From Botryllus schlosseri (taxonomy: Eukaryota): DNA of 60,000 bases. The position numbers were made by a program, and so were the translations under genes. The notes under the pieces were generated by a model. The model made no database searches. It was not told the DNA's origin and was given only the letters and a program-made list of their open reading frames with translations. Where the stretch lies: contig CM119372.1 in the NCBI GenBank assembly GCA_051294905.1, positions 24,988,001 through 25,048,000 of the forward strand. The letters run 5' to 3'. Positions 2,902-37,426 of this stretch are shown here, in pieces (position 1 is the first letter of the stretch; the number at the start of each line of letters is the position of its first letter).

Positions 2902-5900
2902 TTAACGACAAATTAATAGCACCCATTGACTCACGTAAGACTGGGCCGGCATCATGTAAGACACCATCAGCCCCGGCACTTGGGACTGGTCGATCGGCGA
3001 CGGATTCGGGTCCACGACCACCGGCACGGAAGGCTGAGCGCTGGAAGTGAGCGGCACGATGAAAGTTTTCTGCGTGCTGAACATCGGATATCCCAGCGAC
3101 GCGGTCGGGTCCGACTTTGTCAGAGTAGAAGCCGGAGGCAGAGTCGTCGTAGCGAAAGTCGAGACGTCCGAGACCGTCGTGAACTGAGCGTGGTACGTTT
3201 GCTCCGACTGCGGTACGGGATACGAGAAATGATGGGAGGTCTTTTCGTTGTTTATCAAGGTAGCTTCGGAAACTTGACCTTCGCCTAAATCGCAAAACTC
3301 TGTCACACCGTATTTGCATTTTCCCGAACAAGACAAAAGCCAGCACCTGCTACCAGGCTGACGTGTTCCGTAATGTTGGCGATGATCTCCTCGTCGCTTT
3401 TGCCAAGGTTCATGTCGCTCGATGAAATAGGAAAAGGGAATGACTGAAAACAAGTGAGGGGTTTAATTGGAGATCAGGCGACGTATCGTACATGTTGCAA
3501 TAAAATAATAAGGCGTTTCACAACCTTTTTTTCACCACATAACTCTTTTTTGCGATTTCTGACGGGATATCAAACGAAAGGTCATTTTGACACGATGAGA
3601 AATTAAAAACAATCTATGCCCTGGCGGTTTTGGTGTTCGGATGTACGGCAAGGGATTCCAGAAGGATAGTACCTTATTTAATGTTTTTAAATCTAGAACC
3701 ACACTAAATTTAGAAAAATAGCAGGGAGAAATTTGAAAACTGTGCAAAAACAAGTGGAGCTAAGTAAGCCCACCGGAACGCTTCAAAACAGAACTCACGA
3801 GCAGTGACTTGTTAGCATTGTTGTTTTTGGAACTCTGGATTTTCTTCCCTTTGCCCGTCTTTGCATCCTCGGGAGACGGGGGTAGCGGCCCTTTCCTCCA
3901 AATACCCACCGCGTAATCGGGAACGAAAACGTCGTGCTCCTTTTTCTTGTGGCATTTCAAGCTCCTATTGGCTTTGTAACGCATGCCGCAGATGTCGCAG
4001 ACGTAAGGCTTTTCACCTGAGATGAAAGAGGAATCGTGGCTCGCCGTGCAGTAGAAATAGGCGAGCAGGATGACAGCAATTTGCGTTTTATCCTCTGTAT
4101 TTGGCTCATTGTAAAGGGACGCATGCTGACAGCGTGACATACACAAGAATAATCATGTCCGATTGTAATGATTCGAGTCGAATCTTTTGTCCAATAAAAA
4201 TATAGGTCTTCAAACCAATAGTAATATTTTATCCATATAGATTCAATAAGTCATCCACCCTCACAATGGTTGCAAAGCACTACAAAATAATCGTGGTTCA
4301 AAAAGTGGAAATCATTTTGAAAGGCATGTATCGGGCAACATTTACCTCGGGGTCGCAAAGGACATACCTATCTGAACACATTGATACTGTTCTGACTTCA
4401 TAATAGTTGGTACTCGATTTTGGCTGGCCCTACCAATCAAGAGGCCAATCACACTCCCGATTTTCCGATTATCCTATACAGTTTGCCTCAAACTGTACCG
4501 ACAAGTCTTGATAGGATACATACCGAGAGTTAAAAACACCTATTCAATAATTCACAGCGAGCAAAACAGCACCAACCAGAACCTGGAATCAGATTGGATT
4601 TGAGGATTTCACGAATAATACATTTGGCCAAATCCAGTTTTCGATCAAGTATTTATTTGACAGTTGCTACTAAGCTAGCACTCAATGACGGCGGAATTTT
4701 CAATTACCTGTGTGCATACGCGTGTGTTCGATCAACTTCGTTTTTCTGGGGAAACTCTTCCCGCATTTATCGCAAACAAACGGTCGGCTTTTGTTGTGGA
4801 TGTCGGCGACGTGCCTTGTTAGACCGCACTTGTGCGCAAAAATCTTCAGGCAAATATGGCATTGAAACCTGCGAAAAGTAAGGAGTTTAGGCAAGTCGTC
4901 AGTATGGTCGGCTGTAGCGGAGCGTTATCATGTTTGCTAATTTGATTGCGTTTACAGATCAGAAAATGCAATAAAGGCATAAAACATGAATTACCTGTCA
5001 ACAGGGGACTGGCAGAAAGAAGTGAATATTCAATATAATTTTTAATTCTATAATATAACTGTCGCCTTAGACCAGTGGTTCTCAACCGATGTTCCGTGGC
5101 ACACTAGGGTGCCGATTGAACCACACAGGGGTGCCACGAGAAAGCAAGATCAACATGATTTAAAAAAGCATCGTCAATCTACGTCATATCTCTGAGATGC
5201 TTCCGTCCTGGAGTGCGCAACTTACTGGTTCACAGACAACTGAATCATATTTTTCAACTTGAAGTGGAAAATGGCGACTAAATACACGAGTCTGTGATGC
5301 ACATTCTTTCATTTCAAACCCAGAACAAAAAATGCTCAATTTTGCCTAAAAAACTGTTCAAGAAGAGGCGGAAGTAGTTATAGCCACTCTAGCAAGTGAT
5401 GCAAGTTGGCACACACTACCCAAGTACTCCAAAAAAGTAGAAGTAGGTACTTGATTACTGACATCTCAAGTTAAGATTATCTTCATTAGTGCGATTCGCA
5501 GTGTAATAACAAACGCTACCATAAAATAGAACACAAATCCACAATCATAAAACATACAAAATGAGACTTACTGTCTCTTGATACCCTGGTGCTGCATCTC
5601 GTGTTCTCTGGCGTGAATTTTCTGAACAAAGCATTTCCCGCAGATCGAACAAATGTACGGCTTCTCGCCTGGAAGCGCAAACGAAACGTTCGACGCGTTC
5701 ATGAGCACAAAGCGTACAATCACCAACCCGTATGGAGCAACATATGCATTTTCAAGCTGCTCTTGTAGGGGAATCTCTTGTTGCACATTGTACAGACGAA
5801 CCTCTCCTCTCCTGTGTGCGTTCTACGATGGAGCTGCCAAAAATACGCTGGCTTACGCGGAGGTGGTCGGCAACGAATCACTTTTACTTTTTCGGAGCAC

Positions 5901-8900
5901 TCAAGTAGATTTTGCCTGCTTGCACTAATTACCATGTGGTGTGACTTCAGACTACTTCCACTCCACAGTTTTTTAGACAAAACTACTTACTTTTTAAGTT
6001 TCGGATTTAGTAAAGTAAAAAGGTGTTTGGGGATCTGTTGCATCATTTTTACGAGTGAGTAATTTTCAAGTAGTTTTGACATGTCTTGGAAATCACCACT
6101 TACAATTTAAATTCAAGATCTTCTTGGAGGTACAGATCTTCAATATACAATAGTATATTCATATTGAAATGAACCCGAATATTTTCAGCTGACACTCGTA
6201 AGGGGTAATCGTCAGCAACTAGTAGAGCATCGGAAAGAACATTGTATGTCAAATCGCAAAATATGACGTCACCGACATGAAATATTGGATAATCAGGGCG
6301 CGCTTAAGCTAAATGTTAGATGATACACAAACTCCTTCTGTAGGCACAGGTCTGGTTGGCGTATTTTGATAAAAGTTGAATCCAAGGCACCCACAAACGA
6401 AAGTGCAAAAACTACCTCACCCGACAACACTGAATGTGTCGACCCGGTAATTTTTCGCGCAGACAGGATTATCCAACAAATGTTTGCCAATGGCAGAATT
6501 TATGGCCTTTGCCTGCTCTGAATCAATGTAAATTGAGTAGAAATTTAAGGTGATGCTTCTACTTCTATTTCAGTACCAACGATGATTGCTTAGACCACTT
6601 CTGGGCATTAACAATGATGTGTCCTTAGTCCTAAGGAGTGCCTACTATTTCATCAAGGATAGAATAGTTTCGCGATGGGGTTAGTGCAGTGCATGCTGAC
6701 ATCTTAATCCAATTCGACACCAGGTTTGCCTCAAATTCAAACAAACAACCTCACGATACCTGCATCACATATTCGCTGGTAAAAGTCTTGTCGCAGTCCG
6801 GACATTTCGTTCTCATCTTCTTCTGGTTGTGTTTGGCCATGTGCTTTGTCATTTCGCGCTGCGAAAATATCTTCTCGTCGCAGTTCGAACAAGGCAGCCC
6901 GCCGTTGTGGAATTGCATGTGTCGGTTCAAGGCGTTCCTGAAAAGTAACAGTTCAACAGATCCTGGCGAAGATTGGTGAAGCGCATTTCTACCTATTGAT
7001 AATACGGGAAATAGAAACTCCATCATTTTCAGCTTTAGTTTGTTACAATGTTTCTTTAAGATAAATTACATCGCTAGGTTTACGAGAGCAAAGTTCACAA
7101 ACTACAAAATTACTGTTTTTCACAAATTACTTTAGAACACATTTTCTCCAAATTAGATTACAATTAGAATTACCAAATGCGTAGAAACTCGAAATATATT
7201 CTGAATGAGAAAGATATGTAGTAAGAATTCAGTTCAAAACAAATCAGAGTTCATTATAATAAAGATGAGAATGGAAAATGTCTGTGTACGAAGCTTGGCT
7301 CGTTTCGCACTATACAGTTCTCCTGTGTCATTTTCAGAAAGACAAGAAATTACAACAGATTTAAAACTAGAGCATAGAAACATTTCACAAATTAGATCAG
7401 ACTTAGATGACCGGCATTTCGGCCTAATTAGACTAGAATTATTCAGTTGTCAAAGTCTGCACGAGAGGTCATCTCATCCTGAATTTTCACAAGGCATCAT
7501 TGGCATTATAAAGACGATTCAAACCTGACTGATTGACTTCAGGGTCGAGTTTTAGACTATTTTTTGAGTACCTGACATTATGATGTCAAACAACGTAAGA
7601 GATACTGAAAAAATTCAAACTTATCGAGTCATCATGAATTTTCGTTGCAGACATGATAAATCAGTCACTACTGCCAATGGCAGAGAGACATACGTTTTGA
7701 GGTATGGAACTTTAATACACATTCTAATAATATATTCATAATAAATATGTGAAAACCCTAATCTTTTCGAGCCAATACTCTTCAGGGGCAATCGTTAGCA
7801 AATGAGGAATTTTAATAACTTTAATATAACTACATCGCTTAGTGTCAGAATAACATGCTTTTGGTTTTAATATATCTTTATCGCGAACAAAATGGTAACG
7901 AGAAGACTTTGACGGTTACTACCTGTATTTGAAATTTTCTCCGCAGACATGACACGTTATCACCTTGGAATGGGTCTTCATGTGCGTCTGCAAGAAAGAG
8001 AATTCTCAAAGACACACCGCGGCGTACCGGAAGTCAAGAGAACAAACGAATCGGTCACCCGCATGTCAGTAACTTCTTTTCCGCAATCGCTGCATATCTG
8101 AGAATCGTCTTCGCCGCTCTTAGACTGAAATATATCACAAACATTTGCTAGGAGGTGAATTTTTTCAATTGCGACAACATGATTTGGTCGCGGCGGAGTC
8201 GAGAAGGGATCTGAATAATCAGTGAAATTTGTGTGTACATAGTTTGAACTTATTAACACTATACATAAAACTTGAGAGATACGGATACAGATAAGACATT
8301 TTTTGAGAAATTCCAGTTCTAGTTGAGGATTTTTAAAAGTGTGCAGTTCTAGTTTTATTGAATAGTATATTCATATTGAAATGAACCCGAATATTTTCGG
8401 CTGACACTCGTCAGGGGAAATCGTCTTCAACTAGTAGAGAATTCAAAAGAACATCGTATATCAACAATCGTAACACAAAATATGACATCACCTGCATGAA
8501 ATGTCGAATACGAGAGCGTTCAATGTACTCTTTTTAGATGATACACGAACTCTTTTTGTTGACACAGCCTCGACTGGTGTCTTTTGATAAAAGTCGACTC
8601 CAAGGCACACAAATGAAAGTGTGAGCGACCCTTTCCGAGTATGCGAAATCTGTCGTCTCGATAATTTTTCGCACAGGCGGGATTATCCAACAAGTGCTTG
8701 CCAATTGCAGAATTTATGGCCTTTGATTGTTCCGCATCAGTCTCGAGCGGATGACGATTACCCCTGACGAGTGTCAGCCGAAAATATTCGGGTTCATTTC
8801 AATATGAATATACTATTCAATTGTATATTGAAGTTCTGTACCTCCAAGAAGCTGTTCTAGTTTGATCTTAAATACCTTTCTTTTTTTCCTGGCCTTCATT

Positions 8901-11900
8901 TTAGAACTGCAATCCTGTGAATAGAAAATTCGAATATGAATGACACTTGCCGGGAAATTTCTCACCTTGTTTTACCTTGTCATGTTCGGCTCCCGCAAGA
9001 CTTTTGCCGAAGGTACTAGACGCTTCCTCAACAAAACTCTGAAAGATCAGTTGTAGCGAGTTAAAATCTGTCGAAGCCAGAAAATTAGCACTGATCGAAT
9101 TCCGGCCAAACGTCTTTCAATGGGTTTCCTTCCGAAATTGCGGAAGCCTTCAAATCTCGATTGGCCGTATCATAGAACTAAAACATGAAGCACACACTTG
9201 CGTCATCTCAAAGTGACACAAAATTGGTACGGCCGAAATTTACCAAAAAAACTTGAACGCGATCGCATAAAAGGTACACAGATTTGAACTTTCAAAATAA
9301 GCCAAGCGGTTGTTACGTCGCAATGAGCGATACTCCATTAAGAGTCGAATCACTCGCGAACTCGGTTTTGCACAACCCTTATCCTATTATGCCGCAACAA
9401 TAATCTCGCTAACCTGGCCTAAACCGTGAGAATCATTCTCATTAACGGCGGTAAACACAATCTCCTGTTCCATGGGTCGCCACTCCGCTTCCGTTTCCAC
9501 AACTTCCAGCTCCTCATCCACCGAATCCTCCGATAACACAAACGGTCGAACCACCTCCAACTCCGTCATGGTCTCGGCTCCGGTTTCGATATTGCGATCG
9601 TTGTTCACTACAATCGAACATGCTTCGTTCGCATTAAACGAGCCGTTGTCTTGATTTTGTCCGGGCGCTTTTGTGACCTTTTGTTCGACTCCAAACTTGG
9701 ACTTCATCATTTCGTGAAACTTCGCAGTAGAGGCTCTCATCGGCCGCTGCGAAGTTTTAGGAGTGTCGCCCCGATGCGGCGACACGCTTGTGTCGGATTG
9801 CGAGATCACGCTGGTGACAGCGATTTCAGTTTCAGACTCGTCATCTTCGTCTAGCTGCTTATTTCTCGACAGCGCCTTCTCGATTTCCGTTATGTGGTTC
9901 TTCATGTGAACCTGTAACACAGTGGTTCTTAACCTCCTTGTGACGGCGATCGCCTTTAAGCTGGATTTTACGAGCACGTTTCAATAGACAAAAGGTTCAC
10001 TTCACAAGACTTGACCCCTTTCTATTTTTTTTTAGAAAGATGAGATCCTCGTCTTGTCAATTATGTATTCACACAAGGTCCGCAAAGAAGAACTTGTGGT
10101 ACAAAATCCGAGATCCTTGAATGAGGACTCAGCCAGTTGGCGCTATGAGGCTGCAAATACCACAGCAAAGTGTTGTTAGGAGTCTCACCTTTTCAGTGAT
10201 ACCTGATCGAACCATATGAGAGTGTTAGTTTGAAAATGATCAATCAGAAATGTCTTCCGGCCTAATTGGTGTGACTCTTATACAAACAACAATGACTCAT
10301 CGCTTCCTGCATTTTTGATTGGTTGCATCGACCCCTATCGTGACGTAGTCCGCAGTGCAACCAAAGTTAGCGTCGACATGGATAAAAATTCTGAGTAGCT
10401 TTACTGCGACATTTGGCAAGCTTCCGGCTAAAAAATATGGCTGCTTTCGCCCAGTGTTAACAATTGTTCGTATCGTCCGAGTGGCTATTGGCAGTTGGCA
10501 CCCGTGGTGAGCATTGAAAATAAGGACACAAGTGAAGAATAAGGACAGATTTTATAAATGAGGACAGTGTAGTTTTATAGTTGTTGTTTCAACATTGGAA
10601 TTTGATGGACCCCTTCGAACCCCAGTTTAATATGGCACTGCGCTCTTAAATGAAGTGGTCTCAAATTAAAGATGAAAGTGAGAGAAATTTTTTGGGCGCA
10701 ACCATTTTCCTCGGAACGTCACAGTATTCAAACAGCAGGAAAAAGTGTTAGTTTCCACTCTAGCTCATCTCTGTGGCTTTTCAACACATTGTGAAAATTG
10801 TGGCAATGTGGCATGCATCACTTTCTTGACGAGATCAGGCAGGATATTTGTGATAGTTATCAGCCTAAATTATGAAGCGGTTTAGTTACAGTAAGGTGTA
10901 CCCCGTTGTTACGTCGTCTGTACCGTAACTAAACCATCGTGCCCCTTTAAGAACCCAAGTTGTAAGGTAAGTACTGAACATAAGTACATGACAATTTGTA
11001 ACTACAAAGACGAGATCAGTGGCTCTTAACCTGGATTTGATTGAACTCCAGGGATTTAGTGATTCAGTCTCAATGGTTCGGAGGTCAAGACTTTAAGATA
11101 CTCATGCCGTTTGTAACAAGATATCTGTGCGATCAGCCGGTCAGTGTGCTATACAAGTATGGTATGATATAACAACGAAGAAGAAAAGCAGCGGACGGAA
11201 CCTCGTAGATGGACGCGTCTTTGAACACTTTCTGACAGGTGGGACATTGCAGCCTTCTGACGGCCCGGGCCTTGTTTGTGCACTTTGGAGATCCATTGCT
11301 TTGCTCCTTTTCGCTATTGGACGCAGATCTGATATTGAAAGATGGTTGGTTCATTAGTTAGTTTGTTAGTAGCGAATTCCATCCAAGACACACCAAAATT
11401 ACTCAAGTAGATGCCGACACGGACAGTTGCAATTTGAATTCCAGATACCGTCACCAATTCACTCATTAGTATGACGCAAACATATATACAACACTAACGA
11501 ACTAGTTACAAGTGTTAATTTCCTAAACAATGCTGACGTGGAAGCAAACTCACAATTCATACCTCAACCACAACAAATCATTGCATATGACCATCGAAGT
11601 ACATATATAAAGCTATAAGAAAACAATTACCGAATTCCATATTGACCGTCCATATTGCCACAGTGCACTTCGTCAGTTACGTCCTAAAAAAACAGTTAAC
11701 AAGATTATTTTACTGCAGTCCCCTCCAGAGTTATGTCGGCATGGACGTGTGGTAATTTGGGCTGGACAAAATGTATCACTCATTTGAAGAATTTTTCATG
11801 CTGTAAGATTCGATCAGACGTGTCAAGCTCGCTGAGCTGATATTACTGAATGTGAATTTTACCAATTTTCGAACCAGAGTGGCATATTTGAGGTACACGC

Positions 11901-14900
11901 CAACACTATGATTGGAGCTTGGTACCTGCTATGAGAACTGGACGCAGGATCTGACATTCATCCTGTAGCAAAGACCAAAAATTATTTTCATTTAGATCCA
12001 CATTAGCGGTGTCGTACAAAACCCTAAGTGTGAAAGAGAGCCCTGCTATAAGTCGGCAACTTAGAACTCATATAAAAATACAAGTCAAGCCGACGCTACT
12101 TCAAGTGCAAGAAGAATACAACATGTCCGAGAAGAACTCGCATAATCATGACAAAGATAGGTGCGACTGCGATTATCGAAGTTACAATCGGTTGCCGTCA
12201 TAAGAGGTAAGCATCGCCTATGTCAATATCACTTTCTTTTGACCAAATCTAAAAAGTTAGCAGTTTGGATCCATACAGTAACATGGTTGTCTAAAAACGC
12301 AACCACTCGAGTGAGGAGTGGAAGCAGATAAATCCCACTTGAGTACTCCATAAAGGTTGCAGGCCTACTTTGTAAATGGCCATGTTTGTGTGTAATGGCA
12401 AGGGTTGTAATGACTCGAGTCACGATTTTTTGGTGACTCGACTCCAACAATTTTTTCAAATGTGTAAAATGACTCGACTCGAGTCAATTTGTGACTTGTA
12501 CTCGAGTCATTGTGCCCGACTCGAACCAAGTCATATGACTCAAGACTAGGACAGCCAAGACAGACATTTCATCGTAACTTCGAAGAATAGTACAGTCACC
12601 ACATTATTGGTATTTCGTTCATCAGCCCTAATACTTGAAAACAGGGCCAGAAACTGTTAGGACTGAGGAAAGTTACGATATCATGAATGCGAGCCTTCCT
12701 ATATCACTCGAGCAAAGTTGAAAAACGTGGGTTGAGCCGGATTGAGTTCAAAACTAAACAGTGAATGCAATGACTCGGACTTGACGGTGAATTGAAAATG
12801 ACTCGACTTGACTCAAGTCAAAACTATTAAAGGGAGATTGACTTGTGACTCGGAACCTTGTGAATTGGTTACAACCCTGGTAATGGCAATGACCATAGAT
12901 GCAGATACACCACAAGTACTAAACAACAAAAAAATCGACCCATGTCATTTCTATTCAAGGTATTACCTCCGATTGCATAACATTCTTTTTCGATCTTGTA
13001 TTCCGGCTTGTAGAAGCCACTGAGTTGCCTTTGTCGCAGACGACATCTTCCACACTTGTCTGACGAGTCGATTTCCTTCTCGTACCAGAATCAGAGCTGT
13101 TGGACTGTCTCTTTTTTTCACTGCCACCCGGATTTTCTCGACCGGCCCACTGTTCGTGTCTCGCGGCACTGTTGCCGACCTTTGTCGCATGCTTTGCCTT
13201 CTTTGCTGAAGGAGTATCAATAGCCGTGTCTCTAGATTCAGACATCTTCATTTCGGACAGCGTCACTGCCGACTCCAAATGTTCGGTCAGAGTTTGGATT
13301 TGGAGGCGACGCGAGGCTTTCAAGAACGCGTAAAGAAGCTGAATGTCCGGACCTGCTTCGCTGTCGACATTTTCTAAACAAATATGACATTCAAATCAAC
13401 GTTGATCATATAAGCCAGCGCTTTTCAACCTGTGGGACGGTACACACTTGTGCGGATAAAAAGCTTGCCGTGCGGATGACAAATGTGATGCAGATGATTA
13501 AATTGTGCAGATCGTTCACTTCTTCTGAGTGAAATAATTCAATTTCATTAGAATATTAGGTGTAGTGGCTCTCTAACTTTAGAAGTTGAGACACATTTGT
13601 AAAAACTTACAGGACTTTTCCGACATACCAGTGGCTAATCGTAGCTTTTACAGCAATTTAGTCTCGCGCCAATCGGAGCGAATTAATACTTGTGCACTAT
13701 TAATGTTAATGCTTCTTGGAGGTACAGAACTTCAATATACAATTGAATAGTATCTTCATATTGAAATAAACCCAAATATTTTCGGCTGACACTCGTCAGG
13801 GGTAATCGTCAGCAACTGGTAGAAAATTGTAAAAAACATTGCATATCAATAATCGTATCACAAAATATGACGTCACCGGTATCAAATTTCAAACGAGAGA
13901 GCGTTCAATGTACTATTTTCGGGTGGTACACGAACTCCTTTTGTTGACAGAGTCAGTACATTGAACGCTCTCTCATTTGAAATTTCATGCTGGTGACGTC
14001 ATATTTTGTGATACGATTGTTGATATACAATGTTCTTTCCAATTCTCTACTAGTTGCTGACGATTTCCCCTGACGAGTGTCAGCCGAAAATATTCGGGTT
14101 TATTTCAATATGAATATACTATTCTGTTAATGTTACATAATCAAAAGCAGGAATAAAGACCCGGCCAACCAAGCACTAGAAATTGTTGTACAAGACCTCA
14201 CTACTTATGTCGCCGAAAAGGGCTTTATTGCACTAATTGACATTAGAACAATGAAAAGGAGTTGTCTTCTTGAAAAGATACTTGATGACCTAATGCGGGG
14301 AGCTTTGAAGCAAGAAGTCTCACCTATCTAACTGTGGCAGCAATTGAGTTATCGATAAACCGGTCGCCTGCTTGTTGGACAGCTGATGAAAAGTGTTCAT
14401 TTTCTTTTGTATACTAATTTTAGGTTAGATTGTGCGGATGAAATTTGTGCAAAATCAAAAGTGCGGATGCTAATCACAAAGGCCGAAAAGCACTGATCTA
14501 TGATGTAAGTGATAGTCTGTAGACCAGTGTTGTCAAGTGTCAACCTCTTCAGCAAAATTTCAGATCTCAATTCTAGAGATTTTGACAGACAACATGAAAA
14601 CAGTTTAAATTTTCCGTTTGTATCAGAAGCTTGACTGAACAACCTTATGTGTACCTCAGGGTTTAACCAGGTGTTCTTGTAGTGTGGTGAATACTAGTCG
14701 ATGTGGTATAACCTGTGGTCATGAGGATGTTGATCGTTTTTTTTTATGACTAAGGAGTTGGTTTGCATTCACGCGCCATTTCACGGCAGTGAATTCATTG
14801 GCCTACCTCCACTTGCTTTTGCTTTCGACGATTGTCTTTTCGACTTTCGAGTACTTGGTCCTGTGTCTACAAAGAGTGATATTCTTTCAATCGGATATGC

Positions 14901-17900
14901 CGGATCAATGAACTACAGCCATACCGATTCCAGGACTTTTGAAATTCAAATCAATGTTCCCACTGTAGATGAAATTGAGCAGACTGTCCATACAGCAGCT
15001 TATGACTTCATCCGGTAATGCCACCAACAATTTTGAAGTTCCAGGAACCTAGATGCAGCGAGTTGAAATTCATAATTTCATTCATAAATTTACTATCACC
15101 AACAACAATGCTTGTCCTTTTTATATTAATTTAACTTTTCATTCAGTTTACAATGCAATGAGTAGCAGTGTTGGGATCAAGTCACTACCTTTGAGTCACG
15201 AGTCATTTCACATTTTGACTCGAGTCAAGTCAAGTGATTTTTGAAGATGAGTCAAGTGAAGTCACTCGATTTTTGGAGGTGACTCGAGTCAAGTCACAAT
15301 TCAAGTCAAGTTGCCTTTCGAGGTATGAGGTATGATTACGTCATTGCATTTTGCGATCTGTCTGAAATACAGATTGAGTGGTCATTGATTCCGAACCGAT
15401 GAACGAATATCGAGTTCAATGTTGTATCGCTCACATATACTTAGAACTATTAAACTACGTAAGTAATTGCATAGCCTCAGTTTATAGTTACCAGCCAAAA
15501 TAGAGAAACGAATTGATAAGATGCAATACATTACCCATTTACTAATTGATATGATACAATTCGAGCCTGCGCCAGTGGTTGAGGACTATATAAACTATAT
15601 TCGAATTCAAATTCAATAAAATAAGAAGTTTGGTTAAGGTAAGAACAAAGAACAGAAGTAGACATTTTGTTACTAAATTACTTTACTACTAGTATACGAC
15701 AACATAAGCTGTTAGCTTCGATCACTTCGTTTGCGGTCAATTTAGTTGTGAGGGAACAATAGAGGCTCAGTAAAACGCACGATCCTTGAGTGATTGGTCG
15801 CTCTCACGGGTTACACTAGCGCAGTGGTTCTTAATCTTTTTTCGTCCAGCGCCCCCTTTCAAAAATTATCGTGCTTCAGCGCCCCCCTCAACTTCATATT
15901 GTAAGGAATGTAATAAAGACAATGAGTAAGAGGGAGGGCCGTAACAGCACTTCGTCAACCCCCCTAAAAACGATTGCGTTGCGCACCCATAGCGTGATGA
16001 ACCGAACTTCTGAGGGCTTCGCCCCCACAAACCCCATATCGTGATTTTGATGGTCAGCAAAGTTTGTGTGGCCTGGTCGCCCTAGGTACCAAAATTTGCT
16101 ATAATGCATGGTAGTTACATTTATAAGTCGCTATAAACTTTTTATCCTCTCAGCCCACGTAATCAGATTTACCAGTAGCACTGAGTGAGCTGTTGTATAG
16201 GAAAATAAGGGGCACGTAATTAATAATTAAACATATTCGGGCGTTCCCGCAGGTGCAATTATTCGTTACCAGGGCCGTAACAGCACTTCGTCAGCCCCCC
16301 TCCCCAAACATAAAACGTTGGTCCTGGGCCCCCATCGGGTGATAAACCAAACTTCCGGGGGACTTCGCTCCCAGACCCCCATTAGGCTGTCCGCTATTTG
16401 CTGATAGCCTATTAGGTATCTACATTGGGTGTACATTTATTGAGGGAGCTATTCTCGCCTAGTCGCGCGAAGTGCGAAAAATTTCACTAATTAATGATTG
16501 AATTGGTCAATATCATCGGGAATTGCATGTAAATTGAGATCAATTTTTATCCTCTCTCTGCTCACGTTAACACATTTACCGGTAGAGCTGAGTTAGGTGC
16601 AATGTTCCCTCTAAGCTGCGCACGTGCACAGTGCTGACACGGTCTCTGCGCACAGAAAATCTACGTTGCGCACAACAAATCCGGAGTTATTACCTTTTTT
16701 TAGTCGTTACGCACTGTTGTCCAAGGGTCAGCGCAGTGAGTTGTTGAGTGTGCGCAGACTCATCAAAACTTAAAGCGAACATTGTGAGGTTTCTTGGAAA
16801 CTGTAGGGCCCGTTACCAATAATAAAACATATTCGGGCAGGCGAACCCGTTGGTATGACCTCGTTGCATGATGTTATTTCGTGACCCCCTGTCTGCAATA
16901 TCAAAAAATATAGAATCGCTCAACGGGGATATCGCCCAACAGGAATATCCCTGTCGCCCAATCGTATTAAACTAAAAGACGCACACGATTTCAGATTGGT
17001 ATTTCTTCACTGACATATAACTTTTCCCTGCCTGATGGAATTCGTCTTCTGGGGTTCAGATTTCCAAGACAGGAACATTCGGTGTCAGTCATTTAGGCGC
17101 CCATGGACAATTAAACCTATATGTATTTTGAAGGTTATATGTAACGAAGTTTTCGGTGTTAATTTGCTCTGAATACTCATTAAGGATATGTCCTATCACC
17201 ACATCATCTACTGCGAAGCCATTTTTCTCCAGCGCCCCCCATACCGCCCCCCTGAGCCCAGCGCCCCCCATATCGCCCCCTGAGTGTTTCTGCCCCCCTT
17301 CAACATCGCCAGCGCCCCCTGGGGGGCGCTGGGGGCAAGGTTAAGAACCACTGCACTAGCGTTTCGCGAAAAATCCAAACATATGCAAGATTTTTATCGA
17401 CACCGATTACTTGATGACTTGAAATTGACTCGTGAATTTTGCTCTGAGTCACGAGTCAATCCACATTTCTGATACGCCGAGTCAAGCCAAGTCAAGTCAT
17501 TTTACCAAAGTGACTCGAGTCAAGTCAAGTCATACGAAAAAGGTTACTCGAGTCAAGTCATGACTAGAGTCATCCCAACACTGATGAGTAGTACTCCTGT
17601 ACCTGGAAACGACATTTCCGTGAAGTAGCCTACCGTAGTGATCAACCTGTAGTGTTGTCTCCAGGCACTGTTTCGTGGTTGAGTTGGGCATTGTTTACCT
17701 GTTGGTCGTATAAAAAGTATATACCGGTATTGGAACTGAAGTCTGTCTACTGTCATGATGCCAAAATAAGTGGTACTCGATTTTGCACAGCCATAGTGAC
17801 AAATCTTTATAAAATTATAAAATGGAGTTTTGAATAGTGTCACCTGAATTTTGGAAATACCGTTACCAAAACTAGGGATTGATAGACTGGGAATTGATCA

Positions 17901-18965
17901 ATCCTATCGTAACCATGAAAGGGCATTGAAACTTAAAATACCAACTACGGAATAGCACAAATATAGGCATTGTGCTGACTGTCGTGGACAACGTTTCTTA
18001 ATCAGCTAGCCAGCACACAAAAATGTTGGCATGATCATCTGGAAGAGGTGGCAAAGCAGCAGGGTTGAACTGACTCGAGTCGTGACTTGCCTCACGATTT
18101 TTTGGTGACTCGACTTGACTCGAGTTATTTTTGAAATGCGCGATATGACTCAAATCGAGTCATATATGCATGACTCAAACCATTGTAACTTCGAAGAATA
18201 GTAAAGTCACCGCATTGTTGGTATTTCATCTATCACTCCTGATAGGGTACTTGGGAAAAAGGGCCAGAAATTGTGAGGACGGAGGACCATGTTATGTTAT
18301 GTTATTAATATATCATGAATGTAAGGTCTTCAATTTAACACAAACAGAGAAGCGGACGTGTAGTGAAAAAGTGAGTTGAACGGGATTGAACTCGAGAATT
18401 AACAGCGAATACAATGACTTGGACTCGAGTCACAACATTTTCTGACCCAATTTTACAACCACCAGTTTTGATAGACGAAATACCAATTATGTGGTAGCTA
18501 ACTATACTTCGGAGTCACAATGAAATGTCTGTCTTGGCCACCCGAGTCTCGAGTCATAGGACTTGGTTGAGTCAATACATAAATTTCCTCAGTTGAGTCG
18601 AGTCATTTTCCGTATTTTACAATATGACTCGAGACATTACCGCCCTGATTCTGTCACCTGGAGTGTGCACTGTGCATTGTTCAATCATTTGGGCAATATC
18701 CATGTGTCCATGACCGATATCGGCAGCAAACGCAGATCGAGAAATGACATACCATGCATTCGTTCTCCATTGCATCATTCAACAGCCCATCCAAGACAGT
18801 GGATGCCGCTGACAAGACACACCCGTGCGCATTGAAGGATTGGTTGGAGTCGGAACATTTCAGTACGACATCGCAAAACTTGCCCTGCTTCTGTTTCTCA
18901 TGCAGACTGGAGAACATGGTCGATTGATGCTCACTCCAATTCTCATGGTGAGGGACAACCGCCAT
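2902..18965 (-). CDS. BTB/POZ-domain C2H2 zinc-finger transcription factor (ZBTB-like), multi-exon
   Basis: Phase-consistent GT-AG exons (minus strand): 18965-18753 ([29 protein letters not shown]-part), 15048-14925 ([10 protein letters not shown]), 14866-14807, 13373-12967 ([14 protein letters not shown]), 11683-11631, 11328-11202, 9911-9414, 9038-8976, 8124-8059, 7987-7923, 6937-6760, 5833-5728, 5668-5572, 4868-4708, 4016-3799, 3443-3347, 3284-(2935 donor or stop at 2902). About 10 C2H2 fingers, several with HTGEKPY-type linkers. Probable non-coding first exon ends at a gtaagt donor near 19988. The 3' end is uncertain. Confidence 0.88.
6120..6530 (-). mobile_element. Penelope-like retroelement 3' fragment (GIY-YIG endonuclease C-terminus + pseudo-LTR, hammerhead core mutated)
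   Basis: Frameshifted [22 protein letters not shown] homologous to 55326-55592; shared 3' end gaagatctgtacctccaagaag. Confidence 0.75.
7756..7788 (-). ncRNA. Minimal hammerhead-ribozyme motif, divergent variant
   Basis: Minus strand reads ccc-CTGAAGA-g-tattggct-c-GAAA-agat-TA-ggg: core and stem I retained, with loops different from the main family. Confidence 0.5.
8386..8417 (-). ncRNA. Minimal type-I hammerhead ribozyme motif (PLE-associated)
   Basis: Reverse complement cccCTGACGAgtgtcagccGAAAatatTCggg: intact core, stem I ccc/ggg, palindromic AATATT stem III. Confidence 0.65.
8761..8792 (+). ncRNA. Minimal type-I hammerhead ribozyme motif (PLE-associated)
   Basis: ccc CTGACGA g tgtcagc c GAAA atat TC ggg; predicted cleavage after C8789 (UUC). 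Confidence 0.65.
12400..12879. mobile_element. GACTCGAGTC-rich MITE (inverted relative of 388-834)
   Basis: Ends agggttgtaa / ttacaaccctg; internal similarity to 388-834 on the opposite strand. Confidence 0.7.
13710..14125. mobile_element. Inverted pair of Penelope-like pseudo-LTRs (near-palindrome), each with a hammerhead motif
   Basis: ~13745-13915 is the reverse complement of ~13955-14124; hammerhead cores at ~13771-13802 (-) and 14067-14098 (+); 9-bp flanking repeat ttaatgtta (13700-13708 / 14127-14135). Confidence 0.8.
14067..14098 (+). ncRNA. Minimal type-I hammerhead ribozyme motif (PLE-associated)
   Basis: cccCTGACGAgtgtcagccGAAAatatTCggg, identical to 8761-8792. Confidence 0.65.
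15166..17583. mobile_element. hAT-type non-autonomous element with nested insertions
   Basis: TIR cagtgttgggat / atcccaacactg; perfect 8-bp TSD atgagtag (15158-15165, 17584-17591); gactcgagtcaagtca subterminal repeats. Confidence 0.88.
15822..17353. mobile_element. hAT-type element nested inside 15166-17583
   Basis: TIR cagtggttcttaa / ttaagaaccactg; perfect 8-bp TSD cactagcg (15814-15821, 17354-17361); gcgccccc subterminal repeats. Contains a further small caatgttc..gaacattg element at ~16599-16783. Confidence 0.88.
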
Positions 18966-19213
18966 ACTCTCCCTGAAATGTATTTGAACACAGTCAGCCA
19001 AGTTACATACGATAGATCAAGTAAAGAAGTGATATGCTTGAAAGTAATAGACTTAGGCCTATGAGTGTCTGCCTATATCTAGTGAATGTCGCCGATTGGC
19101 AATGTTCACTGTTCCAGGAGATATTTCATCATTTTACTTGAGTAGCATCAGTGATTACTTTGACTATCGTAGTATAGCTTGACTGGACGACCTGAAGATT
19201 GATCACTGATGAC

Positions 19214-19556
19214 TAGGACAAGTTTTTGTTGCAGTTAAATTCGTGAAAAGTTGCATTTATTTTTGACAAAAGTTGCAGTAAAAAGTTGCATTTATCTTGG
19301 ACCAGATTTTGCTCGGCTGACTAAAAAAAAAAGAAAAAGGTTAACTTGGAATACCCGTAAGAGCGTTGCTTCAGTGCTGATTTACGGTAATTCAGTCGAA
19401 TTTGGCCGTGTATTTCACCAAAATCAAAAATACTTTCATGAAAAATCAAAAAAGTTGCATGAAAAAAAATGGACAAAAGTTGTAAAAAGTTGCACTATAA
19501 GATTTCTTCAAACAGCATTCTGAAGCTGCCGGAAGCTGTAACAAAAACTTGCCCTA
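19214..19556. mobile_element. hAT-type MITE (aagttgca-repeat family)
   Basis: Ends taggacaagtttttg / caaaaacttgcccta; perfect 8-bp TSD ctgatgac (19206-19213, 19557-19564); second copy at ~51436-51820. Confidence 0.85.
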
Positions 19557-20774
19557 CTGATGACGTTTGACTTGTATTAAGCTACAGTGAAATTATTTAC
19601 AATTGAGAGATGGCTTTAAGTGGTGAGCGTCGCGTCGGCGCGAATCAATGCTTCAATGGGCGGAATTACAGAATTACAAAGAAGTTGCGTAACAAAAGCC
19701 GTCACTGGGATCCACGGGATTTTGATGTTTATTTGGTAGTACTAATACAAAATTAAGCCCTTGAGATGTTGATAAACGATCGTAGCTTGGACGTTTGAAA
19801 TGCAGCGTGCGATGAGCGTGAGCAAAATTTTATCGCAACATATCTCTGCTATCGTTTCAAACCCTGCAGTATGAAATTCAACAACACAGGGTGCAAAATT
19901 CCATGTCCTTCAATTGACGTTGTATTTACACCGTTTGGAACTCAATCGCATACTTTTACTAAATATGTCAATCTAAATATAACTTACCGAGTAAATGAAA
20001 ACTTCTCTGGCTACTGTCAGAAAAGTATGGCCTCCGAAAACGTCGATTTCTTCAGATAAACAAGTAACTGCATTCACGCCGAGTGAATTAGTGAATCCGT
20101 ATCTCGTAGCAGTGCCTTTTCATCACGTGACCTCGATCAATGTTTCGCATAAAGTAGCAACCATGACATAAGGTCAATTAATACGGTGGTACATACTGGT
20201 ACCTTCGACTGAATTCATCGAAATATTGTTTGGAGGTATATTAGGATCAACGAAATAACGGAGAATATCCATTACTGATGTTAAAAAATTAACTACGGAC
20301 AGCGTTTCCGGAGCTTATTTAGAGTACCGCCTTACAGCGTCACGCATGAGAAAGTTGAAAAATTACCTCAGTGATTTGCCTACCAGTAATTGTCAGGACG
20401 TTGATTGCCTGGAAATATAGCAGGTGATGTTTTTGCGTTATCTGTAGTGAACTTTTCATTGTATCGCAATCATGGTTCCAGTGCCCGGACCAGATTTTTA
20501 ATTATATTTTCGGAATCAGTGTAAAAATATCTTTCAATTGAGACCGGTTTAATAAAATTTTGCGCTCTGGCCGCCAGCTATAAGATTACCGACATTTCCT
20601 GGGCATCCCTAAAAGACGGAGAAGCGGAGGCAGCGGAGACAGCGGAGGCAGCGGAGAACGGACCCTAAAACGCGGAAGCAACGGAGACGGCGGAGAGAGC
20701 CAAAAATGCCGATTCCTAAAAGACGGAGATAGCGGAGAGCGGAGCTTTCGGTCATTAACCTTTACAGACACGCG

Positions 20775-22670
20775 CGACATAGCGGACGGATACTGAAAGC
20801 GGAGTTCGGGGCTCCGCGAAATAGACATAGCGGACGGTTATATAATATAGAATGCGGAGATCAGGGCGTATCGGAAGATGTTTTGAAGCAGTGGAGAATA
20901 ACGGAGAAGTCAGCCATGCGAGTTCAAGGCCAATTTGGCGACTGATTGCCCGTCGATGAGATGACATAGCGGGCGGTTATATAATACAAGGAAAGCGGAG
21001 TTCCGGGCGTATCGGAAGATGTTTCGAAGCAGCGGAGAATAACGGAGAAGTCAGCCATGCGAGTTCAAGGCCAATTTGGCGACTGATTGCCCGTCGATGG
21101 GATGACATAGCGGGCGGTTATATAATACAAGGAAAGCGGAGATCGGGACGTATCGGAAGACGTTTCGAAGCAGTGGAGAATAACGGAGAAGTCAGCCATG
21201 CGAGTTCAAGGCCGATTTGGCGACTGATTGCCCGTCGATGAGATGACATAGCGGACGGATACTGAAAGCGGAGTTCGGGGCTCCGCGAAATAGATATAGC
21301 GGACGGTTATATAATATAGAATGCGGAGATCAGGGCGTATCGGAAGATGTTTCGAAGCAGTGGAGAATAACGGAGAAGTCAGCCATGCCAGTTCAAGGCT
21401 AATTTGGCGACTGATTGCCCGTCGATGAGATGACATAGCGGGCGGTTATATAATACAAGGAAAGCGGAGATCGGGACGTATCGGAAGATGTTACGAAACA
21501 GTGGAGAATAACGGAGAAGTCAGCCATGCCAGTTCAATGCCAATTTGGCGACTGATTGCCCGTCGATGAGATGACATAGCGGACGGATACTGAAAGCGGA
21601 GTTCGGGGCCCCGCGAAATAGACATAGCGGCTCCGCTATCGGAAGATGTTTCGAAGCAGTGGAGAATAACGGAGAAGTCAGCCATGCGAGTTCAAGGCCG
21701 ATTTGGCGACTGATTGCCCGTCGATGAGATGACATAGCGGACGGATACTGAAAGCGAAAGCGGAGTTCGGGGCTCCGCGAAATAGATATAGCGGACGGTT
21801 ATATAATATAGAATGCGGAGATCAGGGCGTATCGGAAGATGTTTCGAAGCAGTGGAGAATAACGGAGAAATCAGCCATGCCAGTTCAAGGCTAATTTGGC
21901 GACTGATTGCCCGTCGATGAGATGACATAGCGGGCGGTTATATAATACAAGGAAAGCGGAGATCGGGACGTATCGGAAGATGTTTTGAAGCAGTGGAGAA
22001 TAACGGAGAAGTCAGCCATGCAAGTTCAATGCCAATTTGGCGACTGATTGCCCGTCGATGAGATGACATAGCGGACGGATACTGAAAGCAGAGTTCGGGG
22101 CCCCGCGAAATAAACATAGCGGCTCCGCTATCGGAAGATGTTTCGAAGCAGTGGAGAATAACGGAGAAGTCAGCCATGCGAGTTCAAGGCCGATTTGGCG
22201 ACTGATTGCCCGTCGATGAGATGACATAGCGGACGGATACAGAAAGCGGAGTTCGGGGCCCCGCGAAATAGACATAGCGGACGGTTATATAATATAGAAT
22301 GCGGAGATCAGGGCGTATCGTAAGATGTTTCGAAGCAGTGGAGAATAACGGAGAAGTCAGCCATGCGCGTTCAAGGCCAATTTGGCGACTGATTGCCCGT
22401 CGATGAGATGACATAGCGGGCGGTTATATAATACAAGGAAAGCGGAGATCGGGACGTATCGGAAGATATTTCGAAGCAGTGGAGAATAACGGAGAAGTCA
22501 GCCATGCAAGTTCAAGGCCAATTGGGCGACTGATTGCCCGTCGATGAGATGACATAGCGGGCGGTTATATAATACAAGGAAAGCGGAGTTCCGGGCGTAT
22601 CGGAAGATGTTTCGAAGCAGCGGAGAATAACGGAGAAGTCAGCCATGCGAGTTCAAGGCCAATTTGGTGT
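20775..22670 (+). repeat. Modular tandem array forming the left MULE arm (12 copies of the ggagaataacggagaagtcagccatg core)
   Basis: ~140-bp core unit with an optional ~46-bp module (gacatagcggacggatactgaaagcggagttcgggg); inverted counterpart with 3 cores at ~25550-26070. Confidence 0.9.
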
Positions 22671-23442
22671 ATTTCGAACTATTCGACAATATATAATAAC
22701 CGGCACATATATTTTTTTCGATCTGAGAACTAATAATTCACTCCAAAATTTTCTAAAAACCTGAAACTGCTCATCTAACGTTACTGTCACACAGGGTTGT
22801 AACCAAGTCACAAGGCTCCAAGTCACAAGTCAATCTCAATTTTGACTCGAGGTCTGATACGATCTGAGGTTGGATCGATCTCAAAATGCGGCGTTGGAGC
22901 ATTGAGCAAGCGCTTTCCGAGTCAAGCCCTTTGACTCGAGGCCTTACTCATTCACTTTTTTTTTACGGTTTGGCCAATAATATTGAGTGCATGGAAATTG
23001 TGCTGTGAGCATGTTTGGTGCCTGAATTCACAATTTCAATTGTAATATATACAGAGGTGGTCAGTAACGAAGTACTTCTACTTTTTCGAAGTGCTCAAGT
23101 TGTTTTCCTCTACTTCTAGTCCTTACTCAAGGAGATCTGATTTTCACTACTTCTACTTCGTAATATTTTGTGATCTACTTACTTTTCGCTATTTTCAGTT
23201 TGTCAAGTAGAAGTAGCCTAATCCTCTAATCAGGAAGATAGCCTGCAGAATTTCGGGGCTGTTTTCACGGAGTATCCACATCTAATTTTCATAAAAGTTG
23301 AGTAAAGCCCAGAATTTTCATCGCGTTTCGCGCGCAGTGGATGCGGCATAAATAAAGCTACACTATATGGCATTTTTACGATGCACCATATTTTTATTAG
23401 CGTTTACTAATCGCGCAAGGTGTTTACACCGTATCCTATAAT

Positions 23443-24900
23443 GTGACAAAATTCTTCAGGTCAAACAATAAGTTGAATCAAAGATTCTCCCAGCGCGCTA
23501 TGGCGAGGTGGTGCGGGATAAATAATATGGTTGGATTCTCGTCGACCAATGGTGTGTTCACCGTTGCTTCAATGACTCAACGTCAAGTTCATTGCGTCAG
23601 GTATTTCCCACAGCCTTCCTCATGTACTTGCCCAAGCACAACAATATGCTATCATATTCTAGCTGTAGCCATGTCATTAAAAGACAACAGCACACAAAAA
23701 GCGGTCCCCTGCAATTTGAGTCAGCTCCTGAAAAATCGCAAGGGTAGGACCAGGAAGTCCGGTCGGAAAAGGCCTCGCCGGGTAGATTTTGACTATACCG
23801 TAAATAGTACACCAGCTCACCATTCAACACCAAGAAAACAGCAACCCAACAACCGCTATTGCATTCTGATCTATCAATGATATCCGACGAGCAGATGTCT
23901 GAAATCAATGAAGAAACAGCGCCATTGGACTTGACGACCGACTCTGTGAAGCTGCCCGCCCTCAATGATTACCCTTGGCTTTCGTCGTCAAAGGAAGATA
24001 AAGATCCGCAGCATGTGATACGCCAATGCTTGAAACCTGAGCGATGGCTAGATGATGAAACAATAGAGCGAGCGATAGAAGCATTTTGTACCTTTGGTTT
24101 TGTTTTTCACCTCGTACAGGTATCAATGGACTGAACAAGATCACAATGTGCCGTCGCTATGCCGATTTGCGCGTAAGCACCAAGCAGCGAACAAAGACTT
24201 CTTCATTTTTCTAGTGCATGTTCCAAATCACTGGATACTGACAGTAGTTAACTTTTGAGTACCAAAACTGTACTGGTGATGGACTCTTTTATATCTCATA
24301 ATCGGACGAGATATGAGGGTATTTTTCGCCAACTCATTCAAAATTGTCAGTGCTTGCTTCAGGGTTGCGAATGTGAGATGCACAATTGACGACTGGCAGT
24401 TCTTTCTGTGCAGGGACGTTAAACAACAGGAGAACACATTTGACCGCGGCATACATGTGATAGCAAATGCTTATTGCGTGACAAATAATTTACCTTTAGC
24501 GCGTGATTTTCCGTCTGGAAAGTGCCGAGTCTGGGTAGATTACTTGGCAGGGATTCGAGAACGGTCAACTGAGAACCAACTGCCAACCGGCCGTCGACCG
24601 ACTGACGAAACGCAATCAGAATCCGGTTGTATTTTGGATGATTGGAATGCAATATCAGAAAGTGATATTACATATGCAGAGCTAGCCGATTCCTCATCTG
24701 CCATTGGTGTCATGAATAAATCGAAATGGGATAATTGCGACAGCAGCTTATGTAATGGTAGTAAAGACCAAGATCAGCAAATAATGTGTGTGAAATGTCG
24801 AAGATGATTCCACAAGTCCTGCCACAAGTCGATGAAAAGGCTGATGAGATGACATACTTCATTTGCTACCGCAAAAACTGTTTAGCTGCTAAAATTCAGC
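23443..24900 (+). pseudogene. Decayed transposon ORF: SWIM zinc finger + Ulp1/C48-like peptidase + PHD-like finger
   Basis: SWIM CTCPSTTICYHILAV; Ulp1-like motifs LKPERWLDDETI, VPNHWIL (~24229), VMDSLY and QQENTFDRG (Cys position is CGC/Arg, 24445-24447); C-terminal CDSSLC..MCVKCRR*FHKSC. Multiple frameshifts and stops. Confidence 0.7.
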
Positions 24901-27276: not shown

Positions 27277-27831
27277 ATGTCTATGCTAGGAGATAGCCTT
27301 CTGATCGTATTCATTTCAGTGTTCACTGCACTTGTTGCTGAAGGATTGACATGGCTCCTTGTTTACCGAACTGAACAATATCAAAGACTGAAAGCAGAAG
27401 TAGAGAAACAATGCAAGAAATTGGAAAAGAGGAAAGAGGCAATTGGGGAACACAGTGAGAAGAGTCAGAAACGTCGTTTGGAACGAGAAGAAGAAAAACT
27501 GAAATCAAACAATCGTGATTTATCTGCAGTTCGTATGAAGTCTATGTTTGCCATTGGGTTTTGCTTTACCGCACTACTTGGAACGTTGAATTCGGTATTT
27601 GAAGGAAGGGTTGTCGCCAAGTTGCCATTTGTACCTATCGGTCTTCTGCAAGGTCTCTCTCATCGCAATCTTATGGGCGAAGATTATACCGACTGTTCGT
27701 TTATATTTTTATACATCTTGTGTACGATGTCCATACGACAAAATATCCAAAAACTACTCGGATTTGCTCCTTCAAGAGCTGCAAACAAACAATCCGGTGG
27801 ACTTTTTCCGACACCTCAACCAGGCAAATGA
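27277..27831 (+). CDS. TMCO1: Calcium load-activated calcium channel TMCO1 (184 aa), CDS intronless
   Basis: Recognisable TMCO1 sequence: LLIVFISVFTALVAEGLTWLLVYRTEQYQRLKAEVEKQCKKLE..NNRDLS..MKSMFAIGF..VAKLPFVP..GLSHRNL.GEDYTDCSFIFLYILCTMSIRQNIQK. ATG at 27277 (the ORF track start at 27262 is a GTG); acceptor tttcag at 27260, probable 5'UTR donor near 26754. Confidence 0.96.
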   Translation: MSMLGDSLLIVFISVFTALVAEGLTWLLVYRTEQYQRLKAEVEKQCKKLEKRKEAIGEHSEKSQKRRLEREEEKLKSNNRDLSAVRMKSMFAIGFCFTALLGTLNSVFEGRVVAKLPFVPIGLLQGLSHRNLMGEDYTDCSFIFLYILCTMSIRQNIQKLLGFAPSRAANKQSGGLFPTPQPGK

Positions 27832-28132
27832 TTGTGACATAGAACCGTTGTATCTTCTGCGCACTGTTACAATTGCATGTGTGGTTGTGATTTGAAAGGT
27901 ATTCTATTCGTTACAAAAAACTCTGATATGGCTTACCTACTATAAGCCAACTTCCAGATTTATGTGAATTGTTGTAAATAATGTGATATAATAGCAACAA
28001 TTTTTCAATATCACCTAAATGTACCGATGTTTGTGTTTCAGCAACGTATTTATAATTTCAATAATCAGATGTCACGTGATGACACTTTGAAGCTACTCTA
28101 GGAGATGCAGTAACCAGTAAAAGACATCAACC

Positions 28133-35370: not shown

Positions 35371-35399
35371 ATATCACGAAGACCTATAAATTCAGGGAC

Positions 35400-37193: not shown

Positions 37194-37426
37194 CAGTGTT
37201 GGGATCACTCGAGTCATGAATTGACCCGAGTCAGACTCGAGTCAACTTTTTCGTATGACTTGACTTGACTTCACTCGACTTGACTCCAGTCACCTTCAAA
37301 AAACGAGTGACTTGACCTGACTCGAGTCATCTTCGAAAATCGATTGACTTGACTTGACTCGAGTCAAAATGTGCCAAGACTCGAAATGACTCGGGACTCG
37401 AAGGTAGTGACTTGATCCCAACACTG
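37194..37426. mobile_element. MITE derived from the 15166-17583 hAT family
   Basis: TIR cagtgttgggatca / tgatcccaacactg; flanks gaagatgt / gaagatat (7/8). Confidence 0.8.

Follow-up and report, generated by a model that had tools for sequence, protein, structure and literature searches.

Penelope-like element ends with minimal hammerhead motifs in introns of a Botryllus schlosseri ZBTB gene

The repeat copies and their Penelope-like origin

We analysed 60,000 nucleotides (nt) of the Botryllus schlosseri genome (assembly GCA_051294905.1, contig CM119372.1, positions 24,988,001 to 25,048,000, forward strand). This stretch is called the window, and all positions are given in its own numbering. 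Eight 5'-truncated ends of Penelope-like elements (PLEs) were found in the window, six in introns of a ZBTB gene and two in introns of an ankyrin/IQ gene. They carry parts of the PLE open reading frame (ORF), the pseudo-long terminal repeat (pLTR) and a hammerhead ribozyme motif, as follows.

3760-18965, minus strand: host ZBTB gene, a hand-made model with 14 coding exons, GT-AG introns and an open frame of 873 amino acids (aa)
6120-6527, minus strand: copy A, 5'-truncated PLE end with frameshifted GIY-YIG C-terminus, pLTR, tail and ATG at 6162; ZBTB-sense, intron 10
6174-6216, minus strand: hammerhead of copy A, with core changes G5 to U and C11.1 to U
about 7696-7830, minus strand: copy B, pLTR end of a sister family, 5' limit approximate, ATG at 7739; ZBTB-sense, intron 9
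7756-7799, minus strand: hammerhead of copy B, intact core, C3 at 7785, A17 at 7759; centre of stem III non-palindromic
7799-7793, minus strand: pseudoknot strand of copy B, with one compensatory change
8357-8754, minus strand: copy C, 77-aa GIY-YIG C-terminus and pLTR without tail; ZBTB-sense, intron 7; inverted partner copy D
8386-8428, minus strand: hammerhead of copy C, intact core, two mismatches in the pseudoknot strand
8752-8854, plus strand: copy D, ATG at 8804, ORF N-terminus and tail; ZBTB-antisense; inverted partner copy C
8761-8792, plus strand: hammerhead of copy D, C17 at 8789; copy truncated within the pseudoknot strand
8346-8355 (left) and 8854-8863 (right), no strand: target-site duplication of 10 base pairs (bp) enclosing the head-to-head C/D insertion
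13711-13952, minus strand: copy E, final 15 ORF codons, pLTR, ATG at 13759 and tail; ZBTB-sense, intron 2; inverted partner copy F
13771-13813, minus strand: hammerhead of copy E, core and pseudoknot intact, U17
13955-14124, plus strand: copy F, pLTR without tail, ATG at 14110; ZBTB-antisense
14056-14098, plus strand: hammerhead of copy F, C17 at 14095; no other copy retains an intact core, pseudoknot and stems together with C17
13700-13708 (left) and 14127-14135 (right), no strand: 9-bp target-site duplication enclosing the head-to-head E/F insertion
54334-54489, plus strand: copy G, decayed pLTR end with 3/13 core positions changed and the pseudoknot strand broken; ankyrin/IQ gene intron, sense
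55358-55788, plus strand: copy H, GIY-YIG C-terminus, pLTR, hammerhead with G8 to A, ATG at 55738 and tail; following ankyrin/IQ intron, sense

Copy B belongs to a sister family that is about 76% identical to the main family. An initial annotation of the window had listed the seven other sites and overlooked the intact sister-family core at 7756-7799 on the minus strand. Its description of the repeat as attached to GIY-YIG C-terminal fragments is accurate for A, C and H, the only 3/8 copies with a long fragment, and extends to the 15 codons of E, but does not apply to the others.

The coding remnants cover the C-terminal 77-81 residues of a PLE ORF and are 81-83% identical to the ENA proteins P0001 and P0176. 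Every copy is truncated and none includes the reverse transcriptase (RT); the link to an RT was made through P0176, which is 83% identical to the window fragments and contains RT motifs, and through P0152, an 841-aa RT and GIY-YIG protein with a C-terminus 63% identical to them. The Pfam scores of P0152 were 35.1 bits for RVT_1 (cut-off 29.6) and 22.5 bits for GIY-YIG (cut-off 22.6). At the level of protein sequence, these matches link the repeats to a Penelope reverse transcriptase. Together with the N-terminal codons, tails, inverted pairs and target-site duplications, they bear out the Penelope-like origin proposed in the initial annotation.

The main-family ATG lies 14 nt past the predicted cut site, and the first codons are within the pLTR. 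The corresponding distance is 19 nt in B and 3 nt in L001/L002, a PLE that is 51-53% identical in protein and has the same hammerhead layout. A profile of 10 full-length PLE N-termini ranked D, H and E at the top of 3143 six-frame segments of the window, with E-values of 7e-6, 2e-4 and 3e-3, respectively; the value for B was 0.29.

The C/D and E/F pairs are head-to-head, and a tail of about 33-36 nt is present on one partner only (D and E). Canonical PLE insertions are described as consisting of tail-bearing and tail-less partners (PMC8557442, PMC3846280; here and below, published work is cited from the available portions of its text). The 5' truncation, the adjoining inverted copy, the one-end tail of 30-40 bp, the target-site duplication of 8-10 bp, and the first ORF codons and TATA/initiator inside the pLTR all match canonical PLEs with a C-terminal endonuclease (PMC8557442, PMC3846280; Anolis PAc, PMC11167929), and we saw no structural difference from canonical PLE insertions. 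The ORF of PAc starts inside the hammerhead (PMC11167929), whereas the ORF here starts 14 nt after the cut site. No convincing target-site duplication was found at the solo copies A, G and H. The consensus of the relatives has CxC and two His residues without the CX2-5CxxC linker, which, as a motif comparison by published clade criteria, argues against the Neptune and Hydra clades; a motif search of the supplement of the clade paper gave no match. We also considered a non-LTR retrozyme, defined by head-to-tail tandem repeats without coding sequence (bioRxiv 10.64898/2026.07.22.740005), and rejected it, as the copies here are solo or head-to-head and joined to ORF ends.

The summed depth across the repeat in the public contig set X12 was about 10,000 times that of unique bins, which is not a copy number but indicates that the repeat is very abundant. 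About 250 X12 contigs each exit the element at 8853 and 8857 into dissimilar flanks. X12 is possibly the source of the window itself; its contigs bridge the A junction and the whole of B, and its coverage over the C and F junctions was less than 31 letters.

The hammerhead motif and its proposed loop II pseudoknot

Both strands of the 60-kb window were scanned exhaustively for a 3-bp stem I, a 1-bp stem II, the core and the start of stem III. Five sites passed, with C3 of the core at 8764 (+), 14070 (+), 13799 (-), 8414 (-) and 7785 (-), which correspond to D, F, E, C and B, respectively. Dinucleotide-shuffled controls gave one match in 2/100 and none in 98/100. An Rfam scan at E<=10 detected no hammerhead family in the window and returned three weak unrelated matches; in our reading, the 1-bp stem II and short stem III place the motif outside the curated models. 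Given the silence of Rfam, the motif was identified by the pattern scan and by comparison with related elements instead of a curated model.

The motif is present where the initial annotation had placed it. The coordinates given there were exact for five copies (C, D, E, F and H), and C8789 does correspond to position 17 in copy D (8761-8792). The mutations reported for A are real, but its coordinates were off by one base (6174-6205). C (8386-8417) and D (8761-8792) had been called intact, which is true of their cores but not of their pseudoknot strands (5/7 and 6/7 pairs, respectively, D being truncated there). E had been called near-intact; its U17 is present, but it is not clearly a defect, since U17 is common in published PLE hammerheads (PMC4209133).

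Other CTGANGA sites in the window, including that of the repeat at 26745-26914 and 41908-42117, formed no hammerhead. This diverged repeat, with a further copy at 43036-43123 (66-75% alike), ends near a CTGACGA word and may be the 3' end of another retroelement.

The motif consists, from 5' to 3', of a 7-nt strand, a 4-nt linker, a stem I of 3-4 bp, the core and G10.1, followed by a 7-nt loop, C11.1, GAA, a 6-nt palindrome, position 17 and the 3' strand of stem I. The conserved type I core (CUGANGA / GAAA / UH) is present. The palindrome of stem III is AAUAUU in 7/8 window copies, an imperfect AAGAUU in B, and AAGCUU in L001/L002. All 13 core positions are unchanged among F, B and L002 despite diverged flanks. 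In each of the three families, a TATA-like and an initiator-like word, identified by eye, precede the upstream strand by about 25-30 and 3 nt, respectively; they probably represent the element promoter.

The minimum-energy folds of the monomers were catalytically inactive hairpins or the pseudoknot helix alone, and those of C, D, E and H were hairpins burying the core. The energy of the dimer with swapped halves was +2.0 kcal/mol for F-F and -3.3 kcal/mol for L002, calculated as secondary structure with pseudoknots left out; each pseudoknot helix contributes about -8 to -10 kcal/mol (about -9.6 in the swapped dimer). A swapped dimer at about +2 kcal/mol before its two pseudoknots is therefore plausible only between close, intact partners, such as those of a pLTR-ORF-pLTR transcript. 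No same-strand tandem for dimerisation was found in the window, where the close pairs are opposite-strand and same-strand copies are 0.6-7.6 kb apart. These models support a minimal type I hammerhead with a palindromic stem III, which is a known kind; cleavage is predicted and should need a dimer, in agreement with the initial annotation and with PMC4209133.

The 7-nt loop II is complementary to the 7-nt strand upstream of stem I, with 7/7 pairs in E, F and H, and the strand and loop of A have the same letters. The terminal pair is compensated in L001/L002, and B has a second compensated pair, one wobble and one mismatch. In an alignment of eight rows, 92.9% of the cells of the helix were paired and both sides had changed in 2/7 pairs; controls with the helix slid along the alignment were 24-41% paired. 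From this covariation we infer, with modest support, a loop II pseudoknot. Further loci for covariation were sought in a metagenome scan (2/83 stretches, both of the L001/L002 family), in viral contigs (none by DNA pattern and 0/4 by alignment) and in genome contigs (0/28).

Between 14028 and 14066, 78-231 reads of RNA run X22 had loose ends, corresponding to an expressed copy elsewhere in the genome that has no upstream pseudoknot strand and a loop II longer by 2 bases. As GT-AG ends are absent, a splice is a less likely origin of this variant than a genomic deletion between short repeats.

Minimal hammerheads are known from metazoan PLEs, and the published examples showed no activity as monomers and weak activity as dimers (Cervera and De la Pena 2014, PMC4209133). 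The motif described here shares with them the type I topology, the pLTR location, the short helix I, G10.1-C11.1, the palindromic stem III region, the occurrence mostly as solo copies from truncated PLEs, and C, U or A at position 17; opposite-strand pairs 100-700 bp apart are also described there. However, helix II has at least 3 pairs in 56/56 of the Fig. S3 representatives of that study versus 1 bp here, its consensus has an unpaired base before the long helix II whereas none occurs here between positions 9 and 10.1, and its available text mentions no pseudoknot, whereas here loop II pairs with the upstream strand. PLE hammerheads with a short stem III were reported to cleave as dimers (Lunse, Weinberg and Breaker 2016/17, via PMC6765202 and PMC6466107); the short palindromic stem III, the PLE association and the dimer requirement, here predicted, are common to both. 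The alignments of Lunse et al. could already include the pseudoknotted form with a 1-bp stem II, in which case the window motif is simply a member. A hammerhead described in 2011 (PMC3088659) shares both the pseudoknot between the stem I and stem II regions and the one-base-pair stem II, and loss of 2/6 pseudoknot pairs lowered its activity about 20-fold. The case tested there was a metagenome-derived type II monomer, whereas the motif here is type I, retroelement-borne and has a dimer-type stem III. A pseudoknotted PLE hammerhead with a 1-bp stem II was not found in the literature searched, which did not extend to the most relevant alignments, those of Lunse et al. PLE hammerheads and intronic relics are thus already known, and the combination of a 1-bp stem II with a pseudoknot is a modestly unusual architecture.

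The host gene and its transcript

The ZBTB model encodes a BTB domain and 10 C2H2 fingers, several of which are split in frame by introns that hold copies. The model was made from sequence, without RNA support, and its exon 4 has a weak donor; a homologue search with a ZBTB exon gave 0/648 candidates. The E/F pair is in intron 2, C/D in intron 7, B in intron 9 and A in intron 10. By this model, the minus-strand copies A, B, C and E are in sense orientation in four different introns, the orientation also given in the initial annotation.

Positions 3000-19400 were compared with two RNA runs, of which 6% and 13% were used, and with two contig sets. In both runs the depth was zero at 3000-4640 and 9017-12298, which include ZBTB exons, and therefore neither run is informative on splicing or cleavage of the host gene. 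Moreover, 97-98% of the matched reads continue into other loci. The sole pile-ups of read ends were at 15408 and 15740, away from the cut sites. The two runs showed no excess of A>G over other transitions.

Within ZBTB intron 2, the E/F pair forms a near-perfect palindrome of 380 nt (13745-14124), whose two pLTR promoter-like regions face outwards; the pair is a candidate for A-to-I editing or small-RNA production.

In the minus-strand pre-mRNA, antisense F directly precedes E and antisense D directly precedes C. The calculated duplex energies were -257 kcal/mol for E/F and -120 kcal/mol for C/D, and the hammerheads of C and E were predicted to be fully duplexed, with pairing probabilities of 0.99-1.0 at the sampled core positions. 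These models suggest that C and E, the main-family sense copies with intact cores, are both masked by adjacent antisense copies. Heterodimers of sense copies in the ZBTB transcript had energies of +1.9 to +6.3 kcal/mol, pseudoknots left out. Mismatches among the seven main-family copies were similarly frequent in the core (6/91) and in the flanks (54/648; Fisher p=0.68), so that the cores are no better conserved than their surroundings, an outcome that the initial annotation had itself named as refuting its proposal. Selective inactivation of sense solo copies (A, G and H mutated, B not) was considered and rejected, as the number is small, A and G are old, and the change in H is a CpG-type transition.

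Several other repeats and genes lie in the window. A dispersed, short-palindrome-rich family of the GACTCGAGTC type (389-832, 12403-12879, 15166-15311, 17442-18573, 22792-22843 and 36420-37426), with several copies inside ZBTB introns, is probably a miniature inverted-repeat element. An inverted-repeat element at 20600-22667 and 25549-26250 has internal subrepeats of 141-190 nt, and ORF pieces inside it (23401-24807) gave weak matches to a SWIM zinc finger and an Ulp1-like protease, a content that we take to be typical of a Mutator-like transposon. Three long ORFs that look single-exon lie close together at 27202-33626, between intron-rich genes: TMCO1-like (27202-27831), EFR3 (28121-30565) and an ankyrin and NUDIX protein (32262-33626), presumably NUDT12. 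The long inverted repeats at 33990-35372 and 39133-40296, 93-98% alike and about 4-5 kb apart with a 21/24-nt minisatellite inside, look like a foldback-type DNA transposon.

Explanations for the element and its ribozyme

The copies are very probably neutral, decaying 3' ends of an abundant endonuclease-bearing PLE that inserted in the ordinary way, and these relics probably do not cut ZBTB RNA. Ordinary PLE retrotransposition would account for the 5' truncation, the head-to-head partner, the one-sided tail and the target-site duplications of 9-10 bp. The pLTR would contain the 5' region of the element, in which the promoter-like pair is followed by a hammerhead filling the 5' untranslated region (UTR) and then by the AUG of the ORF. 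In a full pLTR-ORF-pLTR transcript, two hammerheads would exchange halves via the palindrome so that either core cleaves the site of its partner, and by the published model this reciprocal cutting would release unit-length RNA. The likelier effect of the relics in the ZBTB pre-mRNA would be the formation of long intronic double-stranded hairpins.

Several observations weigh against this account or parts of it. Insertion in vitro did not require the PLE hammerhead in Anolis, and no reads were reported at its cut site (PMC11167929). Read ends likewise did not accumulate at the cut sites in the two RNA runs, a weak test with reads from other loci. The tandem arrangement is assumed for this exact family, and the promoter words were seen by eye only. 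The covariation comprises three families and two independent events, and the pseudoknot structure was derived from the same rows on which it was evaluated, so that both alignment controls are biased in its favour. Regarding masking, the minimum-energy fold of a 3.1-kb stretch pairs D with A and releases C into another inactive fold, and copy B has no adjacent inverted partner. Finally, when all structured positions are counted, mismatches were 13/257 versus 54/648 in the flanks (p=0.09), and weak constraint is possible.

A reading in which the hammerhead-shaped motif serves a structural or regulatory role in the 5' UTR, for instance in protein binding, translation start or template selection, and cleaves negligibly in vivo even in full-length elements, is somewhat unlikely. 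The active dimers of F-F and L002 have energies near zero or positive without pseudoknots, competing hairpins bury both core halves, and both the unimpaired insertion of Anolis hammerhead mutants (PMC11167929) and the lack of read ends at the cut sites would fit such a role. However, the 13/13 core positions kept in F, B and L002 amid diverging flanks are what catalysis predicts, the pseudoknot helices would stabilise the dimer, and related PLE hammerheads cleave in vitro (PMC4209133, PMC11167929).

The upstream 7-nt strand could also be a look-alike of the core, arisen by chance or duplication, with loop II pairing only with the core. This appears unlikely. The main-family strand does repeat the first six letters of the core (both CUGACG), and the lowest-energy folds of C, D, E and H are hairpins that bury the core. 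Nevertheless, the upstream strand of L002 stays CUGACG with 7/7 pairs although its core is CUGAAGA, and in B the strand and loop have changed together (G-C to A-U) while the core is unchanged.

The initial annotation further proposed that the ZBTB-sense copies could pair among themselves and cleave the transcript as it is made; that this occurs often enough to affect the gene is very unlikely, as C and E would be duplexed with neighbouring antisense copies transcribed earlier, the A core is mutated, the C pseudoknot is broken, the B palindrome mismatches A and C (B-A dimer, +6.3 kcal/mol without pseudoknots), the partners lie in separate introns 0.6-7.6 kb apart, the cores show no excess conservation, and PLE dimers are slow even in tandem (PMC4209133). 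In its favour, four copies (A, B, C and E) are sense to ZBTB, the B core is intact with no inverted partner adjoining, antisense D masks only one of C or A at once, and host mRNA can be tuned by an intronic ribozyme (CPEB3, PMC10919898). The least obstructed case would be for core B to cleave copy A, which lies 1.6 kb downstream of it, at the UUC site, since a dead core is still a possible substrate in a swapped dimer; alternatively, core C would cut the site of A if D were taken by the partner of A or C. Slow intronic ribozymes left splicing unaffected (Fong 2009, cited in PMC10919898). Most likely, then, the relics do not cut ZBTB pre-mRNA at a meaningful rate, and regulation of the host gene through hammerhead cleavage is not supported.

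The hammerhead of full-length elements in this PLE lineage could act as a switch at the 5' end of the mRNA, an idea that we regard as decidedly unlikely. In the off state loop II would pair with the core, and in the on state with the 7-nt strand at the start of the transcript; only the knotted form would dimerise with the copy in the 3' pLTR, cut and remove the cap, which would link cleavage to translation or decide whether the RNA serves as mRNA or as template. If so, the uncapped RNA would begin 3-19 nt ahead of the AUG. A comparable proposal has been made for viral hammerheads located just before the start codon (PMC13725137).

The form with a 1-bp stem II and pseudoknot escapes Rfam and is unlike the published representatives compared above, and consequently PLE hammerheads may be undercounted. 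The knotted form also provides a compact construct for asking whether a pseudoknot speeds a dimer-type PLE hammerhead. Head-to-head insertion sets an antisense copy beside a sense ribozyme, which would neutralise the ribozyme in host transcripts; such neutralisation would offer a simple and testable explanation for the tolerance of thousands of copies in introns.

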